The notes under the pieces are model-generated. The model saw only the letters and a list, made by a program, of their open reading frames with translations, was not told the DNA's origin and searched no databases. This document shows, in pieces, positions 5,954-63,250 of a DNA stretch of 64,000 bases. Source of the stretch: Vicinamibacterales bacterium (GTDB taxonomy: Bacteria; Acidobacteriota; Vicinamibacteria; Vicinamibacterales; CAVVIG01); NCBI GenBank assembly GCA_036004865.1, contig DASYQZ010000097.1:4606-68605 (forward strand), in the 5' to 3' direction. Every line of letters begins with the position of its first letter. Within the stretch, counting starts at the first letter, position 1. The position numbers and the translations under genes are program-made.

Positions 5954-6499
5954 TCAATTGTGAACGGGATGACGAAAACCGTTCAGGTAATCGCGGAGAC
6001 CTTCCTGCGTGCTGCGGAATGCCAGATCGTCCCAGGGAATCGCGTCGCGGCTGAACACAGCCGTTTCCAGACACTCCTCGTCGATGCAGAGCTCGCCGCC
6101 GATGGGCGTCGCGGCATAGACGACGATGATCGGCGCGCGACCGGCGTAGGAGTAGATGTTGACGAGCGCGTCGAGCCGCACGTCGAGCCCGCATTCTTCG
6201 CGCGCCTCGCGTACCGCGGCGGCGGTCAGCGCCTCGCCGCGATCGACGTAGCCGCCGGGAAACACCCACTTGCCGTAGCCGGGATCGATCGCGCGTCGGA
6301 CGAGCACGAGGCCGCCGGCGTCCGTTTCGATGATCGTCCCCACGGCGATCTTCGGGTCCAGATAGAACACGAATCCGCACGCGGTGCAGACCGGACGCGC
6401 CGGTTCGCCGGCTTTCAGAACGCGCCGCTCGAGCGTCCCGCCGCACCGCGGACAGAACCGGTACGCATGCGAGTCGTCGTGGTGATGGAGATCATTCAT
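5954..6499 (-). CDS. NUDIX hydrolase with an N-terminal zinc ribbon
   Basis: Nudix box GGYVDRGEALTAAAVREAREECGL. Zinc ribbon CPRCGG..CTACG. The start is trimmed to ATG 6499 (MNDLHHH) because the upstream ORF extension runs through a heptamer array. Confidence 0.85.
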   Translation of the reverse strand: MNDLHHHDDSHAYRFCPRCGGTLERRVLKAGEPARPVCTACGFVFYLDPKIAVGTIIETDAGGLVLVRRAIDPGYGKWVFPGGYVDRGEALTAAAVREAREECGLDVRLDALVNIYSYAGRAPIIVVYAATPIGGELCIDEECLETAVFSRDAIPWDDLAFRSTQEGLRDYLNGFRHPVHN

Positions 6500-6501
6500 G
6501 A

Positions 6502-6657
6502 GATTGCAGATTGCAAATTGCAGAATGCAGATTGATTGCAGATTGCTGATTGGATTGTGCGGCTGTGCCGGACAGTCCGCAATTCGAAAATGCAATCTGC
6601 AAATCCCAATCTGCAATCAATCTGCAATCTGCAATTTGAAATCTGCAATGTACAATT
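6502..6657. repeat. palindromic tandem-heptamer array: (GATTGCA)n, a spacer, then (TGCAATC)n
   Basis: Left arm 6502-6557, right arm 6591-6657. The outer roughly 46 nt of the arms are reverse complements with 3 mismatches. The central spacer is itself a small hairpin. Confidence 0.9.
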
Positions 6658-8836: not shown

Positions 8837-9556
8837 TTACATGTCAGAGTGAAGTCTGAGTTCACTCCGACCTCGCTCCGACTTCATTCCGACTCGTGTC
8901 GGAGTGAACTCTGACTTGAGTACGACTACGCCTAGCCGCTCGTGCCGCGACTCGTCCTCAACCGGGTTCGGCTTCAGTGTCGTCCAGCAGTTGCGAACGC
9001 TGTCCAGGTCCGCATCCGGGAGGGGATCAGCGCAAATCGCACGATGCGCCGCGCGGCGCTCTTCGTCGGTTGCGCCGAGTCCCAGATAAAGCTCGTGCGG
9101 GACGAGCCACTCGATCACCGCGCCAAGTCCATGCGCGCGGTAACTTGACCAATAATGCGCGTCCGGCGTCGCAACCATGCCCGCTCGCACGGGGTTCTGT
9201 TCGACGTACCTCAAACAAATGAGCCACTGCCGCTCATCCAGGAGGTGTTTCGCGCGATATCGACCCTCCCAGATGGTGCCCGTCCGACCGTACTTGCGAT
9301 TGAAATAACGGGTGTATCGCTCACCCAGCTGCTTCATCGCGCCGGCCATGGCCGTCTCGCTGTTGGGCGTCGCGATCAGATGGTAGTGCGTCGTCATCAC
9401 GACGAACGCGTGGACGGACGCGCCGTGGCATTCAGCTGCGGCTGCGAGGATCCTCAAGAAGACGTCACAATCTGCGTCTTGCGTGAAGATACCCATCCGG
9501 TTGTTCCCGCGGTTGTAGACGTGTGCGCTCACCTTCGGAAGATAGATTCGTCGCAT
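8837..9556 (-). CDS. REP-associated tyrosine transposase (RAYT; IS200/Y1 HUH family)
   Basis: HUH motif in VVMTTHYHLIATP. Catalytic Tyr region GTIWEGRYRAKHLLDE, plus YVEQNPVRAGM. The last roughly 25 codons are read out of the flanking inverted repeat, so the true C-terminus is uncertain. Confidence 0.8.
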   Translation of the reverse strand: MRRIYLPKVSAHVYNRGNNRMGIFTQDADCDVFLRILAAAAECHGASVHAFVVMTTHYHLIATPNSETAMAGAMKQLGERYTRYFNRKYGRTGTIWEGRYRAKHLLDERQWLICLRYVEQNPVRAGMVATPDAHYWSSYRAHGLGAVIEWLVPHELYLGLGATDEERRAAHRAICADPLPDADLDSVRNCWTTLKPNPVEDESRHERLGVVVLKSEFTPTRVGMKSERGRSELRLHSDM

Positions 9557-9767
9557 GTGAACCCCCGGCGATCAGTCTCAGCAATATCTGGTCTCAGCGA
9601 GATGCCAACGAAACTCGCGTGCTCGGTCGAACACGAGGCAGTTTCTGCCAACGCGACTTAACCGATCCGACGTGCCCGTAAGTCGTACTGAAGTCAGAGT
9701 TGAGTCAGAGTGAACTCCGACTCGAGTCGGACTTGAGTCGGAGTGATGTCGGAGTGAAGTCGGACTC
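8845..9767 (-). mobile_element. RAYT gene bracketed by roughly 90-bp imperfect terminal inverted repeats built from REP-like hairpins
   Basis: The reverse complement of 8845-8930 aligns with 9677-9767 (cgta(a)gtcgtact[c/g]aagtcagagtt..cactccgac..gagtcgg..). The arms contain palindromes such as CCGACTCGAGTCGG and begin with CGTAG / CGTAAG. Confidence 0.75.
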
Positions 9768-15723: not shown

Positions 15724-15754
15724 TTTTCGCGCTTTCGTGTTTTCGTGGTTGCAT
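15724..15754 (+). repeat. family F3, copy 2
   Basis: tttcgcgctttcgtgttttcgtggttgcatt, lying between the barrel gene stop and the MBL hydrolase start. Confidence 0.85.
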
Positions 15755-15780
15755 TTGAGTTGGCTGACCGCCGAGCTGCC

Positions 15781-18038: not shown

Positions 18039-18103
18039 GCAACCACGACAACACGAAACCACGAAAAAGACCAATCGTGCTTTCGTGTTTTCGTGGTTGC
18101 ATT
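18039..18103. repeat. family F3, inverted pair (hairpin)
   Basis: gcaaccacgacaacacgaaa (18039-18058) is the reverse complement of tttcgtgttttcgtggttgc (18081-18100) at 19 of 20 positions. Confidence 0.85.
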
Positions 18104-34805: not shown

Positions 34806-36977
34806 TTAGTATCTCGCGGTTTGACGTATGGCCTTCAGCACGTCAGATGACTGAGGAAGGATCGCTTCCTCGAGGTCCGGACAGTAGGCCACCGGCGCAT
34901 CGAGCGCGCCGACCCGCTTCACCGGCGCGTCGAGATGCTCGAAGAGCTCGCCGCCGATCCGCGCGGCCAGCTCGGCGCCGAAGCCGCACGTCAGTTGATC
35001 CTCGTGCGCGACGACGACGCGGTTCGTGCGCTTGACGTGTGTGGCGATCGTGTCCCAGTCGTACGGAGCGATGGTCCGGAGATCGAGCACCGCGACGCTG
35101 ATGTGATCTTTCTCGGCCTGATGCGCGGCGACCAGCGTCCGCTGCACGAGCGCGCCCCAGGTGACGACGAGCACGTGGTCCCCCTCGCGCCGCAGGCTCG
35201 CGCGGGCGAAAGGAATCATGAACTCTTTCCCGGGGTACTCGCCCTTGTTGTACGTCTGGCGGTACAGATGTTTGTGCTCGAGGAAGAGGACCGGGTCGTC
35301 GCACCGGATCGATGTGCGCAGCAGGCCCGCCGCGTCGACGGCATTCGAGGGAAACACGATGCGGATGCCGGGGCAGTGCGCGAAGATGCTCTCGCCCGAC
35401 TGGCTGTGATATGGTCCGCCGCCGCGCAGATAGCCGCCGATCGGCGTCCGGATGACGATCGGGCACTTCCAGGTGTTGCCCGACCGGTACCGCATCATCG
35501 TCAGCTCGTCGCGGATCTGCATCATCGCCGGCCAGATGTAGTCGAAGAACTGAATCTCGACCACCGGCTTCAGCCCGCGCGCCGCCATCCCGACGGCCCG
35601 GCCGACGATGCTCGCTTCTGCGAGGGACGAGTTGAAGACGCGATCGTCGCCGAACATCCGCTGCAGGCCGTGCGTCAGCTTGAAGACGCCGCCTTTGCCG
35701 GGGACGACCGGCAGCGCCTCTTTCTTGCTCGCGTCGGCGACGTCCTCGCCGAAGACGACGATGCGCGCGTCGCGCGTCATTTCGTCTTTCAGCGTGCGGT
35801 TGATCGCCGCGACGACCGTGTCCGGTTTGCCTTCGGGCTGCGCCGGCGTGTCGAATGCAGACGAGCAGGGGTCGACGTCGGGGGAGTACACCCAGAGCGT
35901 CGCGCTGTCTTTCGATGGTTTGGGCGCGGCGAGCGCCTTCGTCGCCGCTTCGTTGACTTCCTGCTCGACTTCGGCCGCCATCTCGGCCAGCGTCTCGTCG
36001 GAGGCCAGACCGTTCTGTTTCAGGAACTCGGCGAACCGCTTGATCGGATCGCGCCGGGCTTCCGCCTCGCGTTCCGCCGGCGGCTTGTACAGCTTCTCGT
36101 CGTCCGACAGCGAGTGGGAATACGGACGAATGACCTTCGCGTGGACGAACGCCGGACCTTTGCGCGCGCGGACGTAGGCGGCCGCCTCGCGCATCGTCCG
36201 AAGGCTCTCGAAGAAATCGGTGCCGTCGATCGACTCGACGAACAGTCCGGGGAACGATCGCACGAGCTTCGAGATGTCGCCGCCTGCCGTCTGCACTTCG
36301 ACCGGCACCGAAATCGCGTAACCGTTGTCCTCGACGAGGAACAGGACCGGGAGATTCTTGGCGCACGTCGTGTTGAGCGCCTCCCAGAATTCGCCCTCGC
36401 TCGTCGCGCCTTCGCCGAGCGAGACGTACGTGATCTCGTCGTCGCGCGATCGCTCGCGGCGATCCGGAATCTGCGGCACGCGGCTGTAGATGACGCCCGC
36501 TTCCGCCGCGCCAACGGCGTGGAGCACCTGCGTGCCGGTGGGACTGGAGCCGCTGATGATATTCAGTTTGGTGCTGCTCCAGTGCGAGGGCATCTGCCGG
36601 CCGCCGGAATTGGGGTCGTCCTTGGCGCCGACGGCGGCGAGCAGCATGTCGAGCGGCGTCATCCCGAGCTGCAGGCACAGCGCGCGATCGCGATAGTACG
36701 GACAGAACCAGTCGTAGCCGGGTCTCAGCGTCAGGCCCGCGGCCACGAGGACCGCTTCGTGGCCGGCGCCGCTGATTTGAAAAAAGATATGACTCTGATT
36801 TTTGAGCTGGATTTCCTTGTCGTCGAGCTTGCGCGACAGGAGCATGCAGCGATGGACGGCGAGCAGCTGGGCCGGAAGCAGGTCCAACTCTACACCGCTC
36901 GATTGACTCGCGGCGCTCGATTGACTCGCGGCCGGGTGCGCCCCCACGCTGCTGCCGTTGACAGCGGTCGCTTTCAT
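34806..36977 (-). CDS. fused alpha/beta E1 component of a 2-oxoacid (branched-chain-type) dehydrogenase
   Basis: 723 aa. The TPP-binding alpha part has ..[15 protein letters not shown]... The beta part has ..VFGEDV...GGVF..T.GL. and ..[15 protein letters not shown]. Confidence 0.85.
36897..36932. repeat. perfect 18-bp tandem duplication in the 5' end of the E1 gene
   Basis: gctcgattgactcgcggc x2, encoding [12 protein letters not shown]. Confidence 0.9.
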
Positions 36978-37574: not shown

Positions 37575-40285
37575 TCGTCGCGCAGCGCGACCATCGGATC
37601 GAGGCGCAGCGCGGTCAGAGCCGGAACGATCGCGGCGAGCGCCGCTGCGGCGAGCAAGGCGAGAACCGTGGCCGTGAACGTGATCGGATCGATGGGGCTG
37701 ACGCCGAAGAGCAGCGCGCGAATGAGGTGACCGCCGGCCGCGGCAAGCAGCAGGCCGATCGCGCCGCCGGCCGCCACCGGCCTGAGCCCCTGCCCGACAA
37801 TCATCCGGAGTAAATCCGTTCGATTCGCACCGAGCGCGACGCGAATGCCGATTTCGCGCAGCCGCCGGCTGACGGAGAACGCGACGACGCCGTAGAGACC
37901 GCTGCAGGCCAGAACGAGGCCCATCAGGCCGAGCGCGGCGGCCGCCGCCGCGGCGATTCGGACCGGCGATAGCGCGAGGCGAACGTTCTCTTCGATCGAC
38001 TTGATCGAGACGAGCAGGTTTGGATCAGCCTCCGCCACGCGGGCGCGCAGCACGCTGACCACCGCCTCGGTGCGGCCGTCGTGCGCGATGAGCAGCCTGC
38101 CTTCCATGAAGCCGCGGATCGGCGTGTAGACCTTCGGACGGATCCGCCGGTCGACGGCGATGCCGCTCGTCGTCGCGACAACGCCGACGATTTCGTCGTC
38201 GCCGTCCTCGTCGCGGCCGAGGCGCACGAACCGGCCCAGCGGATCGGCGTCGCCGAATCGCGCGCGCGCGAATCGCTCGTCGACGACCGCGGCTCGCGCC
38301 CCGCGCCGCACGTCGTCGAGCGTGAAGCCGCGCCCGCGCAGGACGGCGACGCGCATCGTCTTGAAGTACTCGCCGCCCACCTGCTCGCATGCGACGTCGA
38401 ACCGCTCGGACGGCCGGCCGTCGGCGCCGATCGTCCTGGCGCGCATGCCGCAGCCGCCGAGCAGCGGATCGTTGACCGTCATCGATACGCCGACGACGCC
38501 CGCGCTCTGCGCGACGGCGTCGCGAAGGTTCATCAAGAGACGGCCGGCCGGTTCCGCCGTGTATTGCTCCTGCTGAAGGTTGAACGACGCAATCAGCACG
38601 TTGTCGGCGCGTTGACCGAGATCCATGCGCAGCGCGCGATCCAGACCGCGCACCAGCAGCCCCGCGTTCACGAGCAGGACGAGCGTGATGGCCGTCTGGC
38701 CGGCCACGAGCGCGCTTTGAAGCGGGATGCGCCATCCCGGCAGCGACCGGATGCCGCGCTCGGTCTTCAACGCAGGCGTCAAATCCCTGCGAATGAGCCG
38801 GAGCGCAGGGACGCTCCCGAAGAACAGACTCGTCGCGAGCGACACGGTGAGCGTGTAGGCGACGATCCACCAGTCGGGAGAGAGATCGATCTGGTGTCCG
38901 GTCATGGCGCTCTTGGGCACCGACGCGAGGACGAAGCGCGCGGCGGCCTGCGACAACATCAGGCCGATCACACCGCCGAGGGCGCCGATGACCGCGCTCT
39001 CGGTGAGGAACTGCCGCAACAAGCGCGCGCGGCCGGCGCCGAGCGAGACGCGAATCGCAATCTCGCGCCGCCGTCCGAGACCGCGCGCGAGCAGCATGTT
39101 CGCGACGTTCGCGCAGGCGATCAGCAAGACGAGGGAGACCGCGAGAAACGCGATCGCCATCACCGGCGCGCCGTTCTGCATGATCATCGGATAGTTGAGA
39201 AACGCGCCCGGCGACACGACGACGGTCGCCGTTCGATCGGGATTGTGCGGCAGCAGCGACTGCTGGCCGAGCACCGAGAGCTCGGCGCGCATCGCCGAAT
39301 CGGAGACGCCGGGTCTGCGCCGCGCGAGGATTTGAATCCAGCCGAACGTCGGCTCGTCGATCAGCATGCCGCCGGGCCGCGTAATGGCCTGCATGGTGTA
39401 GGGGAGCCACACGTCCGGCGTGACGACGAGCGGTCCCGTCGCGTCCGCGTCGGCAACGCCGACGATCGTGAACGGCGTCCGATTCAGGTTGACCGTTCGG
39501 CCGACGACGTCCTGTGCGGCGCCGAACTGTTGTTGCCATGTTGCCCACGACAACACGACGAGCGGCGCCGATCCAGGCGTCTTCGTTTCGTCGGCCGTGA
39601 AGAACCGGCCGAGCGCCGGCCTGGCGCCGATGAGCGGCAACAGGTTCTCGGACACGAGCTGAGCGCGAAGCTGTCCGCCCGCGGCGCACGTGCAGCTCAA
39701 TGACGCCTCGGCGACTGCCGCGAGATCGGCGGTTCGCGACTGCGATCGCATGAACACGAACTCGGGGAACGAAACGAAGTACGGAGTGCCATACGTGCCG
39801 CGCGAGCCGCCGCCGCGCGTCGACATGAAGACGTTCCGGATGGTGCCCGGATCCTTCACGGGCAGCGGGCGGAGCACGAGTGCGTAGACGAGCGTCACGA
39901 GCCCCGCGTTGACGGCGACGCCGAGCGCGATGGCGACGATGGCCGTCGACGCGAACACGGGCGTGCGCCGGAGACTGCGCCATGCGTACGTCAGATCGCG
40001 CGCCAGATCGTCGACGAGCGCCAACGGCCGCGCATCGCGGATTTGTTCCTTGTACTTGTCGACGCCGCCGAATTCGAGGCGCGCGCGGCGCTCGGCGTCG
40101 GCCGGGTTGAGGCCGCGGCGTACGTGATCGTCGATCCGGCTCCTGAGGTGAAACGCGAGCTCCTCGTCCAGGTCGCGTTCGAAGCGATGTCCCGCCTCCG
40201 CTCGCTCACCTCTCGAGCGAGCTTCGGCGAGGCTCGCCGAAGCGCCGGAGGCGCGAAGGCGGCGGCGGCGAAACAGGCGCCACAT
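37571..40285 (-). CDS. ADOP-family permease (duplicated FtsX domains) with a PadR-associated N-terminal prefix domain
   Basis: MWRLFRRRRL..ERDLDEELAFHL..GLNPADAERRARLEFGGV..DLTYAWRSLRRTPVFA. Two FtsX blocks (RRREIAIRVSLGAGR, RLREIGIRVALGANR). ATG 40285 lies 2 nt after the PadR stop. Confidence 0.85.
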   Translation of the reverse strand: MWRLFRRRRLRASGASASLAEARSRGERAEAGHRFERDLDEELAFHLRSRIDDHVRRGLNPADAERRARLEFGGVDKYKEQIRDARPLALVDDLARDLTYAWRSLRRTPVFASTAIVAIALGVAVNAGLVTLVYALVLRPLPVKDPGTIRNVFMSTRGGGSRGTYGTPYFVSFPEFVFMRSQSRTADLAAVAEASLSCTCAAGGQLRAQLVSENLLPLIGARPALGRFFTADETKTPGSAPLVVLSWATWQQQFGAAQDVVGRTVNLNRTPFTIVGVADADATGPLVVTPDVWLPYTMQAITRPGGMLIDEPTFGWIQILARRRPGVSDSAMRAELSVLGQQSLLPHNPDRTATVVVSPGAFLNYPMIMQNGAPVMAIAFLAVSLVLLIACANVANMLLARGLGRRREIAIRVSLGAGRARLLRQFLTESAVIGALGGVIGLMLSQAAARFVLASVPKSAMTGHQIDLSPDWWIVAYTLTVSLATSLFFGSVPALRLIRRDLTPALKTERGIRSLPGWRIPLQSALVAGQTAITLVLLVNAGLLVRGLDRALRMDLGQRADNVLIASFNLQQEQYTAEPAGRLLMNLRDAVAQSAGVVGVSMTVNDPLLGGCGMRARTIGADGRPSERFDVACEQVGGEYFKTMRVAVLRGRGFTLDDVRRGARAAVVDERFARARFGDADPLGRFVRLGRDEDGDDEIVGVVATTSGIAVDRRIRPKVYTPIRGFMEGRLLIAHDGRTEAVVSVLRARVAEADPNLLVSIKSIEENVRLALSPVRIAAAAAAALGLMGLVLACSGLYGVVAFSVSRRLREIGIRVALGANRTDLLRMIVGQGLRPVAAGGAIGLLLAAAGGHLIRALLFGVSPIDPITFTATVLALLAAAALAAIVPALTALRLDPMVALRDE
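40189..40254. repeat. family F2, copy 2 (inside the ADOP N-terminal prefix; opposite orientation to copy 1)
   Basis: The reverse complement reads gcgcctccggcgcttcggcgagcctcgccgaagctcgc..gagcgagcggaggcgggac. Confidence 0.85.
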
Positions 40286-40287
40286 GG

Positions 40288-40674
40288 TCACACCTCCTCG
40301 GGTTTCGCACGGAGCGCGGTGCCGATCGCGGCCACGAGCCGCTCCCACCATTCGGTTTCTTCACGGAGACGCTTCCGTCCGGCAGCGGTCAGCCGGTAGT
40401 ATTTGGCTCGACGGTTGTTGTCGGACGTGCCCCATTCGGTCGCGACGAGGCGCTGGCGCTGGAGGCGATACAACGCAGGATAGAGGGCGCCCTGCTCGAT
40501 CGCGAGCGCGTCGCCGGTGATCTGCTCGATTCTGAGGAGGATGCCGTAGCCGTGCAGCGGCCCGAGAGAGATCGCCTTCAGGATGAGCAGGTCGAGCGTG
40601 CCCGGCAGCAGTTCCGCGGCGTTGTCCACAGGGTCCACAGGGTCCACAGGGTCCACCGTGTCCCTCGGGGCCAT
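40288..40674 (-). CDS. PadR-family transcriptional regulator
   Basis: LDLLILKAISLGPLHGYGILLRIEQ..GALYPALYRLQRQRLV...RRAKYYRLTAAGRKRL. Confidence 0.9.
   Translation of the reverse strand: MAPRDTVDPVDPVDPVDNAAELLPGTLDLLILKAISLGPLHGYGILLRIEQITGDALAIEQGALYPALYRLQRQRLVATEWGTSDNNRRAKYYRLTAAGRKRLREETEWWERLVAAIGTALRAKPEEV
40624..40668. repeat. in-frame 9-bp tandem repeat in PadR codons 5-19
   Basis: gtccacagg x3, then gtccaccgt and gtccctcgg. Encodes (DPV)3 on the minus strand. Confidence 0.9.
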
Positions 40675-52853: not shown

Positions 52854-53912
52854 TCAGCCTTCGCCGTTCGCGGACTCCATCAATCGTTGCACCACGCCAT
52901 CCCAGGTGATCGACCGGGCGCGATCGTACCCCGCGTCGCCGAGGCTTCGAGCGCGCGCGCGGTCGGCCGCGAGTCGCGAGATGCCGGCTCCAAACGATTC
53001 GGGCGTCGGCTCGGCAACCAGGCCGTTCACGCCGTCTTCGACGAACTCCAGCGGACCGCCGGCGTCGCCGGTGGTGACGACCGGTTTGCGCGCGAGAAAC
53101 GCCTCGAGCGTCACATAGCCGTAGTCCTCGTCGAACGGCGGAAAGACGACCCCGAGCGCGCCGGCGTACAACCGTACCAGGTGCTCGGCGTCGACGCGGC
53201 CGGCGAACGTGACGCGATCGGCGACGCCTGCGGTCACCGCCGTTTCGGCGAGCTGTTCACGCAGCGGACCCTCGCCGACGACGAGGAGCCGGACGGCGCG
53301 ATCGGCATGCGCGAGCGCGCGAATGATCAGATCGACGCGTTTGTTCGCTTCGAGCCGGCCGACCGACAACACGTAGTCGCCGTACGGACCGGCGCGCAGC
53401 GCGCCGGCAAGCGGCGGCGGGTGATAGAGCGGTTCGGCCGTGATGCCGTTGTAGCGTTCGAGCCGCGCCGCGATGGTGCGCGCGATGGTGAAGAGCCGCG
53501 CCGACTCCGTCAGCATCTCCCGATCGAGCGCGATGAGCGTATCGCGGAGCCGCACGTCCGCTTCCTCGTGCGTGAACTCGCTGTACGGCGTGCCGCACAA
53601 ATCGTAAATCGGGCGGTGCTGGTGGCAGAGCCAGGTCACTTTGTTTGGATGGCGCACGAAGTACGTCGGGAATTTCGTCGCGATGACGGTGTCGATGCGC
53701 GTGCCGTTGGTCTCGGAGAGATCGACGAGCCGCCAGGCCGCCGCCTGCGCGAGCAGCTCCGCTTTCGGATACCACTTGAACGGAATCGACACGCGCTCGG
53801 CGCGGTACCCGTGGCGCCGGAGCTCGTCGACGAGGCTGCGCACGAGCAGTTCGGCGCCGCCGTGCACGAACGGCACCTGAGCCTCGCACACGAGAACGCT
53901 ACGACTCGGCAT
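52854..53912 (-). CDS. family 4 (GT-B) glycosyltransferase
   Basis: ..VGRLE.NKR.DL...A......L.VVGEGP.. and ..EDYGYV.LEAF...KPVV....GGP.EFV.DG.NG. Confidence 0.85.
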   Translation of the reverse strand: MPSRSVLVCEAQVPFVHGGAELLVRSLVDELRRHGYRAERVSIPFKWYPKAELLAQAAAWRLVDLSETNGTRIDTVIATKFPTYFVRHPNKVTWLCHQHRPIYDLCGTPYSEFTHEEADVRLRDTLIALDREMLTESARLFTIARTIAARLERYNGITAEPLYHPPPLAGALRAGPYGDYVLSVGRLEANKRVDLIIRALAHADRAVRLLVVGEGPLREQLAETAVTAGVADRVTFAGRVDAEHLVRLYAGALGVVFPPFDEDYGYVTLEAFLARKPVVTTGDAGGPLEFVEDGVNGLVAEPTPESFGAGISRLAADRARARSLGDAGYDRARSITWDGVVQRLMESANGEG

Positions 53913-54056
53913 CTGGTAATCGGGTAATCGGGTAATCGGGTAATCGGATTGTGCGATTGCACCACATCGTCGTTGTCGAGGCCATCACGGATTCATCGCG
54001 GCCCAATCCAGCAATCAATTACCCGATTACCAGATTACCCAATTACCAGATTCACC
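53913..54056. repeat. palindromic tandem-octamer array: (GGGTAATC)4, a roughly 70-nt spacer, then (GATTACCM)4
   Basis: The left arm (53913-53949) and right arm (54017-54056) are reverse complements at 31 of 34 aligned positions. The inner edge of the left arm is GGATTGTGCG, identical to 6552-6561. Confidence 0.9.
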
Positions 54057-54059
54057 TGC

Positions 54060-55169
54060 TCACGTGGCGAAACGGAAATTGATGATGTCGCCGTCCAGCA
54101 CGACGTAGTCCTTGCCCTCGAGCCGGACCTCGCCGTGATCGCGGCACGCGGCCATCGTGCCGCGCGCGATCAGGTGGTCGTAGCTGACGACTTCGGCGCG
54201 GATGAAGCCCCGCTGGATGTCGCTGTGAATCTCGCCTGCCGCGAGTTGCGCGGCCGTTCCGCGCGGAATCGACCACGCGCGGCATTCGTCTTCGCCGACG
54301 GTGAAGAACGAAATGTAGCCGAGCAGATCGTAGCTCGCGCGGATGACGCGATCGAGACCCGACTCGGCGAGGCCGAGATCCGTGAGAAACGCCGCGGCGT
54401 CGGCCGGGTCCAGTTGCGCGATCTCGAGCTCGATTTTCGCGCACACGGCGGCCGCCGCGGTCCCGGCGCGAGTGAGGAACGGCGTCAGGCCCGCCGCGTC
54501 CGCCGCGCGATCGATGCGCGTCGCCGCTTCGCCGCCGGCGGACAGATCGGCTTCGTCGAGATTGATCACGATCAACAGCGGCTTGGCGGAGAGGAACTGG
54601 AATCCGCGCAGCCGCTTCAAGTCTTCACCTTTCAGATCGAGCGAGCGCAGCGGTCGTCCTTCTTCGAGCGCCGCCTTGCACGTCATCAGCACGTCGCGCT
54701 CGCGCTCCAGATCCGCCGACCGGTTTTTCTTGAGATCTTTTTCGAGGCGTTCGAGGCGCCGCTCGGCGACGCCGAGGTCCGCGAGGATCAGCTCGTCCTC
54801 CATGGCCTGCGCATCACGCGCGGGGTCGATGGATCCCGATGGATGCGCGACCGCGGGATCGCGGAACGCGCGCAGCACGTGGACCAGAGCGTCCGCATTC
54901 TTGTAGGCGACGACGTCGACCAGCGCTTTGGCGCCGCCGCCGGCTCCCGTCGCCGCGAGATCGGTGAACTCGACCGTCGCCGGCACGCGCTTCCGCGGGT
55001 TGTACATCGCCGTCAGCCGGTCGAGCCGCGCGTCGGGCACCTTCGAGATGCCGACCGACGTCTCTCCCTTGCCGTGCGCGGCGCGCGCCGTCTCCCGCGC
55101 ACTGGTCATGAGCTGAAAGAGGGTGGTTTTTCCGCTGGATGCGAATCCGATGAGAGCGGCCCGCAGCAT
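54060..55169 (-). CDS. ychF: redox-regulated ATPase YchF
   Basis: GFASSGKTTLF P-loop. ..VEFTDLAG/A.., ..VHVLRAF.., and C-terminal TGS-like ..GKDYVV.DGDIINFRF. Confidence 0.92.
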   Translation of the reverse strand: MLRAALIGFASSGKTTLFQLMTSARETARAAHGKGETSVGISKVPDARLDRLTAMYNPRKRVPATVEFTDLAATGAGGGAKALVDVVAYKNADALVHVLRAFRDPAVAHPSGSIDPARDAQAMEDELILADLGVAERRLERLEKDLKKNRSADLERERDVLMTCKAALEEGRPLRSLDLKGEDLKRLRGFQFLSAKPLLIVINLDEADLSAGGEAATRIDRAADAAGLTPFLTRAGTAAAAVCAKIELEIAQLDPADAAAFLTDLGLAESGLDRVIRASYDLLGYISFFTVGEDECRAWSIPRGTAAQLAAGEIHSDIQRGFIRAEVVSYDHLIARGTMAACRDHGEVRLEGKDYVVLDGDIINFRFAT

Positions 55170-55309
55170 GAGTCGAGCCCCGGATGGTACCACCGACCCT
55201 GACAACCGCAATTGTCAGAGGGTCTGACCAGTCAGACTCGTGACAATTCGCGAGGGCGAGGAAACGGCCGAAAATTAGGCGCAACTTACTGACGGGGTGG
55301 ATTTTGCGG

Positions 55310-60724: not shown

Positions 60725-62133
60725 GCGACATTCCGTTGACCGCAGCGTGGGTCGCTGCGGCGGTGGCAGGAAACATCGTCGGCGGCGACGCGTCGCGCGA
60801 ATTGGACGGTGTGTCAATCGACACACGGACGATTCGTGAGGGCGAATTGTTTATCGCCATTCGCGGCGAGCGCTTCGATGGCGCGGACTTCGCAGCCGCC
60901 GCGATTGAGGCCGGCGCCGCGGGCGTGATTGTGCCGCGCGGGACACAGGTGGCGGCGGATGACCCGGGGCGGCCGGTCGTGCCGGTGGTGATCGAAGTCG
61001 ACGACACGACCTCCGCGCTTCAGGCGCTCGCGCATGCCGTGCGGCGCGAAGCGGGCACCAAGGTCGTGGCCATCACGGGCAGCGCCGGGAAGACGACGAC
61101 GAAGGAAGTGACCAGTGAGTTTCTGGCGTCGCGGTACCGCGTGATCCGCAACCGCGGAAACCTGAACAACCACATCGGGCTGCCCCTGTCGCTCATCGAG
61201 CTGCGGCACCGGCCGGAGATCGCGGTGGTCGAGCTGGGCATGAACCACGCGGGGGAAATCAGCACGCTGGTACGGGTCGCCGAGCCGGACGTCCGTGTAT
61301 GGACCAACGTCGGCGAGGCGCATCTCGGCTTCTTCGCGTCGACGGACGCGATTGCCGACGCGAAGGCGGAAATTTTCGAGCGCGCCGCGCCATCGACCGT
61401 GCTGGTCGCCAACGCGGACGACGATTTGATCGTGGCGCGGCTGCCGCGCTACGTGGGCCGCCTCGTGACGTTCGGGATCGACCGCGAGGCGGACGTGCGT
61501 GCGACCACTGTCGTCGATCGCGGCATCGCCGGGACGAGCGCGCGCGTGACGACGCCGCGCGGCCGCATCGACATCGAGACGCCGCTCATCGGGCGCGGCA
61601 ATCTCGCGAACGTTCTGGCGGCGACGGCGACGGCGATCGAGTTCGACGTGCCGCTGGCCACGGTGGCGGAGCGGGCCGCGCGGCTGAAGCCCGCGTCGCA
61701 TCGCGGCGAGATCGTGCGCCTCGCGAGCGGCGCGACGGTGATTGACGACAGCTACAACGCGAACCCGACCGCCGTCACGGGCGCGCTCGAGGTGCTGTCC
61801 GGCGCGGAGGCGTCCCGGCGGATTGCCGTGCTTGGCGAGATGCTCGAGCTCGGCGATCGCGCCGCCGATCTGCACGCCGGCGTCGGCCGGGCGGCGGCAA
61901 GGAATCGCGTCGACCTGTTGTTCACCGTCGGAGGCGGCTCGGCGGCCGTGCTCGCCGACGCCGCAGTCGGCGCCGGCATGTCGCGCGATCGCGTGCGTCA
62001 CTTCGCGACGAGCGACCAGGCGGCCGACGCAGTCGCGGCCGTCGTCCGGAGTGGCGACGTCGTGCTCGTCAAAGGATCGCGCGGGGTGAAAACGGATCGC
62101 GTGGTGGATCGGCTGAAGGCGGAGCGCGCCTGA
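60721..62133 (+). CDS. murF: UDP-N-acetylmuramoyl-tripeptide--D-alanyl-D-alanine ligase
   Basis: ITGSAGKTTTKE, ..ELGMNH.GEI.., ..DDSYNANP... GTG 60721 forms a GTGA overlap with the murE stop. Confidence 0.9.
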   Translation: MSDIPLTAAWVAAAVAGNIVGGDASRELDGVSIDTRTIREGELFIAIRGERFDGADFAAAAIEAGAAGVIVPRGTQVAADDPGRPVVPVVIEVDDTTSALQALAHAVRREAGTKVVAITGSAGKTTTKEVTSEFLASRYRVIRNRGNLNNHIGLPLSLIELRHRPEIAVVELGMNHAGEISTLVRVAEPDVRVWTNVGEAHLGFFASTDAIADAKAEIFERAAPSTVLVANADDDLIVARLPRYVGRLVTFGIDREADVRATTVVDRGIAGTSARVTTPRGRIDIETPLIGRGNLANVLAATATAIEFDVPLATVAERAARLKPASHRGEIVRLASGATVIDDSYNANPTAVTGALEVLSGAEASRRIAVLGEMLELGDRAADLHAGVGRAAARNRVDLLFTVGGGSAAVLADAAVGAGMSRDRVRHFATSDQAADAVAAVVRSGDVVLVKGSRGVKTDRVVDRLKAERA

Positions 62134-63221
62134 TGATCTATCACCTCTTGTATCCGTTCCACGCCCAGATCCCGGTGCTGAACGTGACCCGCTACATCAC
62201 GTTCCGCACCGCGGCGGCGAGCCTCACCGCGCTCGCGATCAGCCTCGTGCTCGGCCCGTGGATGGTGCGCAAGCTGCGCGAGTTTCAGATCGGCCAGGTC
62301 ATCCGGGCCGAAGGGCCGCAGACCCACAAGCCCAAGGCCGGCACGCCGACGATGGGCGGCCTGCTGATTCTGACGGCGGCCCTGGTGCCGACGCTGCTCT
62401 GGGCGGATCTGACGAACATCTACGTGTGGATCGCCGTGATCACGACGGCGGGCTTCGGCGCGATTGGATTCGCGGACGACTATCTCAAGATCGTCCGGCG
62501 GTCCCATCACGGTCTCCGGCCGCGCTACAAGATGGGCAACCAGATCCTGATCGGGGTGGCGGTCGGCATCGTGCTTCTGATCCTCAACGCGAAGGGACTC
62601 TACAACACCCGGCTCATCTTTCCGTTCTTCAAGAACCTGATTCCGGAACTGGGCTGGTGGTACTTGGCATTCGCGGCCTTCGTGCTCGTGGCGGTCTCGA
62701 ACGCCGTGAATCTCACCGACGGCCTCGACGGGCTCGCCATCAGCACGTTTGCGATTGCGGCGGGTGCGTACACGGCGCTCGCCTACGTCACGGGACACCG
62801 CGTCTTTGCCGAGTATCTGCTGCTCGTGCGCTTTGCGCCGGCGGCGGAGCTGACGATCTTCTGCGGCGCCCTCGTCGGTGCGTCGCTCGGGTTCCTCTGG
62901 TACAACTCGTACCCCGCCGAAATTTTCATGGGCGACGTCGGCTCGCTGGCGCTGGGCGCCTCGCTCGCCGTCGTCGCGATCCTGATCAAGCAGGAGCTGC
63001 TGCTGCCGATCGTCGGCGGCGTGTTCGTGCTCGAAGCGCTGTCGGTGATTCTGCAGGTCGGCTACTTCAAGGCGACGGGCGGCAAGCGTCTGTTCCGGAT
63101 GGCGCCGCTGCATCACCATTTCGAGTTGATCGGATGGAGCGAGCCGAAGGTGATCACGCGCTTCGTGATCGTCGGGATCATCTTCGCGCTGTTCAGTCTC
63201 GCGACGTTGAAACTTCGCTGA
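62133..63221 (+). CDS. mraY: phospho-N-acetylmuramoyl-pentapeptide transferase
   Basis: ..K.GTPTMGG.., ..NAVNLTDGLDGLA.., ..FMGDVGSLALG.., ..APLHHHFEL.GW.E. Confidence 0.95.
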   Translation: MIYHLLYPFHAQIPVLNVTRYITFRTAAASLTALAISLVLGPWMVRKLREFQIGQVIRAEGPQTHKPKAGTPTMGGLLILTAALVPTLLWADLTNIYVWIAVITTAGFGAIGFADDYLKIVRRSHHGLRPRYKMGNQILIGVAVGIVLLILNAKGLYNTRLIFPFFKNLIPELGWWYLAFAAFVLVAVSNAVNLTDGLDGLAISTFAIAAGAYTALAYVTGHRVFAEYLLLVRFAPAAELTIFCGALVGASLGFLWYNSYPAEIFMGDVGSLALGASLAVVAILIKQELLLPIVGGVFVLEALSVILQVGYFKATGGKRLFRMAPLHHHFELIGWSEPKVITRFVIVGIIFALFSLATLKLR

Positions 63222-63222
63222 A

Positions 63223-63250
63223 GGGATTGGGGATTAGGGATTTGGGATTC
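63223..63250 (+). repeat. tandem heptamer tract (GGGATTN)4 at the mraY-murD junction
   Basis: gggattg gggatta gggattt gggattc. It overlaps the putative TTG start of murD. Confidence 0.85.

Follow-up and report, generated by a model that had tools for sequence, protein, structure and literature searches.

An octamer-array palindrome between ychF and a GT4 glycosyltransferase gene in Vicinamibacterales: a conserved element and candidate intercistronic RNA hairpin

Why would two neighboring genes on the same strand, which overlap by a few bases in many related bacteria, be held apart by a spacer made of short tandem repeats in inverted orientation? This question is raised by a 64-kb window (the whole stretch analyzed, 64,000 nt of contig DASYQZ010000097.1) from a soil bacterium of the order Vicinamibacterales (Acidobacteriota), in which a palindrome of octamer arrays lies between ychF and a gene for a GT4 glycosyltransferase. 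Homologous palindromes occupy the same junction in other lineages, and their pattern of conservation distinguishes the arm beside the GT4 start codon from the rest of the element. Coordinates below are positions in the window; Lnnn denotes comparison loci and WIN the window's own element.

Architecture and conservation of the ychF-GT4 spacer

The spacer is 147 bases long, and the octamer-array hairpin fills it between a stop-side linker and the GT4 ATG. In transcript order, the parts are:

54060..55169, minus strand: ychF, the upstream cistron (open reading frame [ORF] list; Pfam YchF-GTPase_C, E = 9e-34)
54052..54059, minus strand: linker of 8 nt from the ychF stop to the stem base (sequence and fold)
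54012..54051, minus strand: transcript 5' arm (Tandem Repeats Finder [TRF], inverted repeat, fold)
53947..54011, minus strand: hairpin interior, 65 nt (second inverted repeat, fold, ortholog comparison)
53913..53946, minus strand: transcript 3' arm (sequence, inverted repeat, TRF)
52854..53912, minus strand: GT4 glycosyltransferase, the downstream cistron, 352 aa (ORF; Pfam Glycos_transf_1, E = 1e-28)

A preliminary description, made from the sequence alone, had placed inverted octamer arrays between ychF and the glycan cluster, and inspection of the sequence, TRF, and a repeat finder all recover them: arrays of about four octamers, GGTAATCG / GATTACCN, lie at 53911-53946 and 54012-54051. On the plus strand, 53910-53955 reads CAT followed by CTGGTAATCGGGTAATCGGGTAATCGGGTAATCGGATTGTGCG, and 54017-54062 ends in CAATTACCCGATTACCAGATTACCCAATTACCAGATTCACCTGC followed by TCA. 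Directly after the CAT (53910-53912), the left array runs CTGGTAAT CGGGTAAT CGGGTAAT CGGGTAAT CGG and then ATTGTGCGATTGCACC, and its complement at 54018-54051 reads ATTACCCG ATTACCAG ATTACCCA ATTACCAG. TRF reports the left array (53911-53947) as period 8 with 4.6 copies and 96% matches, and the right (54018-54052) either as period 8 with 4.4 copies and 81% matches or as period 16 with 94% matches. The inverted arms delimited by the repeat finder, 53911-53944 and 54018-54051, are 34 nt each and 73 nt apart; their high complementarity agrees with the preliminary description, the count being 32/34 (94%) instead of 31/34. That the left arm sits directly upstream of the GT4 start codon is likewise borne out, with no gap between the arm and the ATG at 53910-53912. 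An array end 3 nt from the ychF stop, as had been described, is obtained only by counting a degenerate fifth unit, GATTCACC at 54049-54056, that reaches into the linker; the well-matched arm ends at 54051, 8 nt from the stop. Read as transcript, the 5' arm comprises the octamers CTGGTAAT TGGGTAAT CTGGTAAT CGGGTAAT plus TTGATTG, the interior an inner GATTG/CAATC repeat layer and a central loop without conservation, and the 3' arm three copies of GATTACCC plus GATTACCAG, directly 5' of the GT4 AUG. The G+C content is 66% for the window, about 37-49% for the arrays, and ~45% for the stem arms.

The spacer is identical on two independent Joint Genome Institute (JGI) metagenome contigs that encode an identical YchF, giving three identical assemblies with the window's; the element is thus no assembly artifact and is stable on that timescale. 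The ychF stop codon, TGA, occupies 54060-54062 and the probable start is the ATG at 55169, the mechanical ORF extending to a TTG at 55211. The exact sequence of the 369-aa product is present in public records. YchF relatives assign the window to the order Vicinamibacterales of the Acidobacteriota, and the best YchF match is 94% identical and belongs to 'Acidobacteria bacterium 13_1_40CM_65_14'. An exact look-up of the GT4 protein, aimed at strain-level copy-number change, matched no record. The GT4 ATG at 53912 is backed by homolog N-termini and by the conserved junction of array and ATG, and the ORF next after GT4 encodes a GT2 glycosyltransferase. The public GT4 call on L161/L162 (4294-5316, corresponding to window 52854-53876) starts 36 nt downstream and yields 340 aa.

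Spacer length was measured at 73 related ychF-GT4 junctions, drawn from both genomes and metagenomes; in 25 of them stop and start overlap by 4 nt (ATGA), and 45 are spaced at 25 nt or less. Every spacer longer than 85 nt (16/16) is made of tandem repeats, and 14 of these are GGTAAT palindromes homologous to the window's, representing 10 distinct sequences; the remaining two are a palindrome of CACGAAG units (L091) and a set of direct arrays (L022). The element is also present on two partial contigs, L105 and L106, and in a collapsed 36-nt version in L101/L102. The comparison of orthologous spacers that had been proposed at the outset therefore establishes the element as homologous across at least 10 lineages (WIN, L001, L090, L093, L103, L106, L113, L130/132/133, L135, L146, and L147). 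These share a common plan. After the stop codon and 0-10 nt, the 5' half has 3-5 (N)GGTAAT(N) units (NGGTAATN) and the inner GATTG layer; a loop of 0-130 nt leads into the 3' half, with CAATC units and four GATTACCN, of which the last, GATTACCAG abutting ATG, is conserved.

Sequence identity was compared across nine lineages for the 34 nt leading up to the ATG, the first 45 nt past the stop, the middle, and the four-fold degenerate sites of GT4. Identity reaches 85% in the 3' arm, 71% in the 5' arm, and 50% in the middle (46% when shuffled); the four-fold sites are 60% identical, versus 43% by chance. The 3' arm consists of exactly four units, in register with the ATG, in 9/10 lineages. Conservation of the 3' arm above the 5' arm points to a side-specific function beside the start codon rather than a symmetric one. 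With folds anchored at the ATG, compensatory double-sided changes appear at ~12/38 stem positions, a count that leans toward pairing because the fold register was picked by energy minimization. Examples are C-G to A-U at -26, -18, and -10 and G-C to A-U at -17 and -9, while at position -14 U-A, G-C, and C-G are all found among the orthologs. The near-identical contigs L130 and L132/L133 differ by one 8-nt unit in the 5' arm only, which shows slippage at work. Across the orthologs, then, the arms keep both their pairing and their sequence, the loop varies freely, and the arm at the start codon is the most constrained.

In neighbor-joining trees of both flanking proteins, the palindrome lineages are mixed among lineages with the ATGA overlap: WIN is sister to L081, which has a 3-nt spacer, and L001 to L089, which has the overlap (spacer -4). 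This interspersion requires repeated gain and loss, or recombination. Further lineages carry other repeats at the same junction, namely a 9-mer palindrome (GGTACGTCG type) at 7106-7248 of L027, direct GAACCTT arrays at 7090-7188 of L022, and the CACGAAG palindrome at 1272-1401 of L091.

Predicted fold and a candidate mechanism

RNA fold prediction agrees with the long hairpin that the preliminary description had expected on the minus-strand transcript between ychF and the glycosyltransferase. The sense RNA has a minimum free energy (MFE) of -88.2 kcal/mol with z = -9.0, and none of 200 shuffles was as stable; the antisense RNA gives z = -9.2. The predicted sense stem of ~59 bp (53 Watson-Crick and 6 G-U pairs) starts 8 nt past the ychF UGA and reaches the GT4 AUG, pairing its A and U; its helices run without interruption for 19 and 16-20 bp. 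RNase III typically cuts duplexes of this kind (19 + 16-20 bp with a single mismatch). All 12 ortholog folds are more stable than their shuffles, 11 of them at z -3.3 to -8.9, with the collapsed 36-nt form of L101 at z = -1.4; in 9/12, the sense strand folds more stably than the antisense. A search of Rfam 15 gave the window no match at gathering thresholds, the sole hit being due to chance (E = 8.7). A G-quadruplex was rejected as an alternative structure, since at least four G3 tracts are required and the plus-strand arm has 3 GGG tracts and the sense 5' arm 2; in orthologs, the tracts are broken by TGG, GAG, and GGAT.

The element probably lies inside a ychF-GT4-GT2 transcription unit. A consensus scan of 53700-54300 returned 0 promoter-like (sigma-70) and 0 terminator-like sites, which, together with the overlap coupling of relatives, suggests one transcript spanning ychF, the spacer, and GT4, with the hairpin forming in the mRNA. 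TATAAT boxes and U-tract terminators are present elsewhere in the window. A sigma-54 or leaderless promoter in the 3' arm was rejected by eye, there being no -24/-12 element and no plausibly placed TANNNT.

We tentatively favor, with a probability that we place a little short of even, a conserved intercistronic RNA hairpin whose 3' arm would be the GT4 leader and which would be opened by RNase III or by ribosomes at the ychF stop. Among the roles first suggested for the array (insulator, terminator, processing site, or protein-binding array), the processing site is accordingly the one we prefer, as a model. GT4 has no Shine-Dalgarno (SD) sequence, and the 32 nt that precede it are the conserved 3' arm; under this model the SD-less leader would be (GAUUACCN)4-AUG, and the 5' arm would act as an "anti-leader," a complement sequestering the 3' arm plus the AUG, such that GT4 translation would need the stem to open. 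RNase III could cut the long duplex, freeing the leader and separating the ychF and GT4 segments of the mRNA. Alternatively, opening might be brought about by ribosomes terminating at the ychF stop, which is located at the helix base. The helix base would also put the ychF stop beside the GT4 start, so that termination-reinitiation coupling could persist, and the arrangement would replace the ATGA stop/start overlap of relatives. The repeats themselves would arise and persist through replication slippage and arm-to-arm templated correction. At the level of the wider class of repeat palindromes described below, the median gap for arrays between co-directional genes is 4 nt on the stop side and 15 nt on the side of the next start.

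If this mechanism holds, operons of a phylum dominant in soil would use long repeat-built hairpins in place of translational coupling, and the locus would offer a handle on similar elements, put at ~200 per genome by extrapolation from 32 in 1.06 Mb, as well as on the unexplained link between palindromes and widespread intervening sequence (IVS)-protein genes. The locus is tractable, having a clear polarity (3' arm fixed, 5' arm looser, loop free) and natural "empty" ATGA alleles in close relatives.

Several points weigh against the intercistronic hairpin. We infer each of its working parts, namely co-transcription, RNase III cleavage, and the translational effects. The AUG is unpaired in the predicted folds of L135 and L146, and the window's stem starts 8 nt past the stop, so a terminating ribosome need not melt it. 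The wobble asymmetry expected of selection on one RNA strand is absent or weak, with G-U/A-C counts in 10 orthologs of 49/5 for sense and 46/9 for antisense, and across 29 palindromes of the class neither strand is consistently favored by MFE. The compensatory changes could also be obtained by DNA-level template switching without RNA selection. Finally, palindromes of the same build also separate divergent genes (6501-6649) and convergent genes (L013, L046, L052), and there a single transcript cannot account for them.

Alternative explanations and known systems

In 1.06 Mb, made up of the window and 80 acidobacterial loci, a scan for inverted array pairs of period 6-12 found 32, or ~1 per 33 kb, and period 7 was by far the commonest array length (82/182). 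A neutral or selfish palindrome is one rival explanation: slippage would expand the octamers, template switching (quasipalindrome correction) would keep the arms complementary, and the hairpin, having no function of its own, would be tolerated at gene junctions since it is folded out of the way. We consider this explanation rather unlikely. It accommodates the dominance of period-7/8 arrays in these genomes, the ~30 palindromes with many different units, the single-arm 8-nt difference between L130 and L132, the collapsed remnant in L101/L102, and the patchy presence among close relatives, in all gene orientations and with no RNA-strand signature. A symmetric process does not, however, predict a 3' arm conserved above the 5' arm, nor does neutrality sit well with a 3'-arm sequence and four-unit count that are kept where four-fold sites are only 60% identical and the loop is randomized, or with a spacer identical in three assemblies of the same population. 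Patchiness could also reflect insertion of a mobile, non-autonomous palindromic element at stop/start junctions, similar to a REPIN (a doublet of repetitive extragenic palindromic [REP] sequences) or a miniature inverted-repeat transposable element (MITE). The interspersed palindrome and overlap lineages in both flanking-gene trees fit this idea, as do the other repeat families at the same junction elsewhere (the CACGAAG type of L091, the 9-mer of L027), a related family with three near-identical 28-nt copies in the window versus 0.02 expected, and a Y1 transposase gene at 8837-9556, resembling REP-associated tyrosine transposases (RAYTs) and flanked by inverted 11-mer arrays. We nevertheless give mobility only a slim chance: within ~0.8 Mb of Vicinamibacterales sequence, the GGTAAT element occurs only at this junction, there is no visible target-site duplication, the loops have no sequence in common, the RAYT-like gene is flanked by a different repeat, and homologous recombination between strains could produce the same patchy pattern. 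A MITE in particular was rejected: inverted arms are present, but there is no flanking direct repeat relative to the empty site in L081 and the interiors are unalignable.

Conservation of the unit sequence beyond what pairing alone would require could instead indicate a DNA-level element, either sites for a regulator or nucleoid protein or a cruciform affecting transcription or supercoiling of the glycan cluster. GGTAAT-type octamer palindromes at non-orthologous loci of distant Acidobacteriota (L056, L046, L068) and the same architecture between divergent genes at 6501-6649 are compatible with such a role. So are viral contigs: of the 33 distinct IMG/VR contigs (23-63% G+C) that carry (GGTAATNN)3, 7 have an inverted partner within 400 nt, versus 0/20 and 1/25 for scrambled controls (1/45). 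Yet an 8-bp period is out of helix phase, so the repeats would not lie on one face for a protein, arm conservation is asymmetric, no candidate binding protein was identified, and a single factor could not read every palindrome of the class, since the others are built from unrelated units; we judge a DNA-level role improbable. Still less probable, in our estimation, is a transcription terminator or insulator separating ychF from the glycan cluster, another of the options in the preliminary description. A very stable hairpin right after a stop codon invites this reading, and analogous Xanthomonas arrays lie near the end of the upstream ORF. The stem is, however, AT-rich with a large interior, lacks a U tract, and is followed directly by the AUG and AUGCCGAGUCG, which is GT4 coding sequence, in a genome that uses U-tract terminators elsewhere. 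The consensus scan found no terminator-like site and no GT4 promoter inside or downstream of the element, and relatives couple ychF and GT4 by the ATGA overlap. An intrinsic terminator was rejected on its structure as well, requiring a short G+C-rich stem with a 3-8 nt loop; here the stem is ~59 bp, with ~45% G+C in its arms and a 65-nt interior.

The intercistronic hairpin that we favor has partial counterparts in other bacteria. We rate the Xanthomonas GGGAATC pairs and the hmw hairpin of Haemophilus influenzae as the most similar known cases and the window element as a variant of that kind. In Xanthomonas campestris and X. axonopodis, GGGAATC heptamer arrays have mostly four units, form 70-75 convergent pairs able to make stem-loops, are ~90% intergenic and near the end of the upstream ORF, vary in length among related species, and have no known function (Rehm et al. 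2015, PMC4692102). The window element resembles them in its four units per arm, its related G-rich unit (GGGTAATC versus GGGAATC, with exact GGGAATC in ortholog L113), and its convergent, intergenic arms, 73 nt apart with the 5' arm 8 nt from the ychF stop. It differs in being built of octamers (period 8) rather than GGGANTN heptamers (period 7), in filling the whole stop-to-start spacer with its 3' arm abutting the start codon, and in its weak and non-conserved G-quadruplex potential, the focus of Rehm et al. Where Xanthomonas uses a single heptamer genome-wide, other loci in the same acidobacterial genomes use unrelated units; GGTAAT is found at one locus in the 64-kb window and nowhere outside this junction in the related Vicinamibacterales loci searched.

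At hmw1A of H. influenzae, a heptamer array forms an arm of a long hairpin in the 5' untranslated region (5'-UTR); cleavage by RNase III raises expression, and slippage alters the number of repeats (Rapun-Araiz et al. 2025, PMC12721329). The window element likewise has a repeat array as an arm of a long, stable predicted hairpin upstream of a gene, and the mechanism that we propose is the same. In hmw, only the left arm is a repeat array and the right arm is a G-rich region, the hairpin lies in a monocistronic 5'-UTR downstream of a promoter instead of between two cistrons, and phase variation involves large copy-number changes, unlike the 3' arm of the window type, fixed at four units. A third comparison concerns TAACTGA heptamers near SD-less start codons in Beggiatoaceae, Cyanobacteria, and Bacteroidetes, for which a translational role was proposed (MacGregor 2015, PMC4679880). 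With these and the short tandemly repeated repetitive (STRR) heptamers of cyanobacteria, the window element shares intergenic arrays within a few nucleotides of SD-less start codons, and units related to TAACTGA (AACTGAG / CAGTTCT) occur in acidobacterial palindromes. Those sets are almost always direct repeats of one conserved heptamer (169 direct sets versus one indirect), not hairpin-forming inverted pairs.

Two further types of element share features with the palindrome. IVSs in 23S rRNA are excised by RNase III, and their inverted terminal repeats make a stem around an inserted segment, as here; the window element lies in an mRNA spacer, not in rRNA, and its 65-nt interior has no ORF. A decayed IVS-protein cassette was rejected, since tblastn with two IVS proteins (PF05635) found no remnant in the window at E <= 1. 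REPs are high-copy, near-identical palindromic units of 20-40 nt, extragenic and often arranged as inverted doublets that form long hairpins. In contrast to REPs and REPINs, the window element is single-locus in the window and related loci and built of 8-nt tandem units, and the RAYT-like gene in the window is flanked by GTCGGAGTGAA-type 11-mers rather than GGTAAT. Our literature search found no prior account of such acidobacterial palindromes and none linking IVS proteins with repeats. Since 2007, tandem repeats of heptamers and octamers have been recognized as over-represented in the intergenic DNA of bacteria; to our knowledge, no function has been assigned to this excess.

Repeat palindromes at other loci

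The preliminary description had also drawn attention to a 10-mer, GGATTGTGCG, shared by two palindromes, and the 10-mer is indeed exact in both, at 6552-6561 and 53946-53955. A third exact copy lies in coding DNA at 39240, with 0.14 exact copies expected per window. Composition-shuffled region pairs of the same size share a 10-mer in 2.9% of trials, and one-mismatch matches number 9 versus 7.5 expected. Orthologs carry GGATTGTGCG as tandem GATTGTGC units beside the outer arm (GGATTGTGCGATTGTGCG in L130/L132/L133, GATTGCGCG in L103, CGCAATCCCGCAATC in L090), which makes it part of the inner GATTG/CAATC layer. Beyond that, the only GCAATC/GATTGC arrays seen are those at 6501-6649 and in ortholog L090. 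GGATTGTGCG therefore shares its unit type with the heptamer palindrome at 6501-6649 and is not a unique recognition core. Of the earlier suggestion of a common origin or a common core, the inner GATTG repeat layer in orthologs upholds the shared element, and L001, the closest orthologous palindrome, speaks against the core by lacking the 10-mer. The expectation that the 10-mer would accompany tandem arrays at other loci holds for the orthologous elements and fails for five other exact copies in the 80 related loci, which have non-repetitive surroundings and no neighboring arrays; GGATTGTGCG is also in none of the ~30 other repeat palindromes. A dispersed recognition core was rejected on the near-expected one-mismatch count and the array-free copies.

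The palindrome at 6501-6649, with (GATTGCA)n / (TGCAATC)n arms and a ~61-bp stem, separates divergent genes that, from N-terminal translations read by eye and not by domain search, appear NUDIX-like (start CAT 6498-6500, abutting the array) and deformylase-like (ATG ~6676). Owing to its symmetry, both genes have the same TGCAATC array upstream in sense orientation.

Although repeat units in the wider class vary by locus, the same types reappear in different genomes (GGTAAT, AGTACC, AGCT-type, AACTG-type, and CACGGAG). L056, a Candidatus Angelobacter metagenome-assembled genome (MAG) whose YchF is only 48% identical to that of the window, carries at another locus a GGTAAT arm nearly identical to that of the window element. 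One broader interpretation, which we regard as distinctly unlikely, is that repeat palindromes are a distinct, actively maintained class of mRNA/operon "intervening element" in Acidobacteriota and apparently in phages of unrelated hosts, with the window element a cargo-less member co-opted as GT4 leader. Were it true, the elements would colonize stop/start junctions and turn over between unit families, pairing would be kept by hairpin-templated correction, and RNase III would excise or open them, as with rRNA IVSs. They would also be the natural home of Avd-like IVS-protein genes, whose products might bind or propagate them.

Several arrangements were observed in their own right. Among L163-L205, from IMG/VR, palindromic (GGTAATNN)n pairs lie beside start codons in L165, L166, L163, L196, and L178, and in L177 a CAGTTCT array is right beside a GGTAAT palindrome. 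In Terriglobia, a gene for a "23S rRNA IVS protein" of PF05635 (Avd-like, four-helix-bundle) lies between ychF and a ZIP transporter gene (zip), enclosed by inverted heptamer arrays running from the ychF stop to the zip start. The arms are AGTACC in L043 (7079-7564), L061 (7088-7590), and L258-L264 and CAGTTCT in L075 (7109-7591); L073 (7124-7207) has AGTACC arms without the IVS-protein gene. IVS genes flanked by inverted arrays also occur in IMG/VR contigs, at ~1000-1570 in L254/L255, ~600-1040 in L256, and ~1080-1700 in L257, with the units GAAGTGG, GTGGTTA, and GGAACNAA. Judging from translated flanks, the cassette in L254 and L256 appears to interrupt a PglX-like methyltransferase ORF, which reads ...YAVGCMFGRYSLD before the cassette and ...DNVIPI.D... 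after it.

Within the window, the Y1 ORF (8837-9556, minus strand) encodes a 239-aa IS200-like transposase (Pfam PF01797, E = 2e-9) that looks RAYT-like. Its flanks at 8861-8894 and 9680-9764 contain inverted 11-mers, TTCACTCCGAC / GTCGGAGTGAA, which are locally palindromic too, and its placement inside inverted arrays is the layout seen for the IVS-protein genes. The 28-nt motif CGTGYTTTCGTGTTTTCGTGGTTGCATT occurs in three near-identical copies (1879-1906, 15728-15755, and 18076-18103), each just past the stop of a plus-strand gene; its 15-mer core is exact in all three, versus 0.02 expected. Only the third copy has a full complementary arm (AACCACGA units), giving a hairpin at 18041-18098. 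The CACGAAG palindrome at the ychF-GT4 junction of L091 is related to this motif. At 63222-63249, (AGGGATT)x4 begins 0 nt past the stop of ORF 62133-63221, with no inverted partner seen; the unit resembles the Nostoc GGGGA(T/C)T and, reversed, the Xanthomonas GGGAATC. A perfect 9-nt repeat, GTCCACAGG x3.7, at 40624-40656 is coding and gives ORF 40288-40674 (minus strand) an N-terminal (VDP)n tract. Two divergent genes have exact TATAAT boxes 8-10 nt ahead of their ATGs, at 36977 (minus strand) and 37139 (plus strand), a spacing that suggests leaderless or very short-leader mRNAs in this organism.

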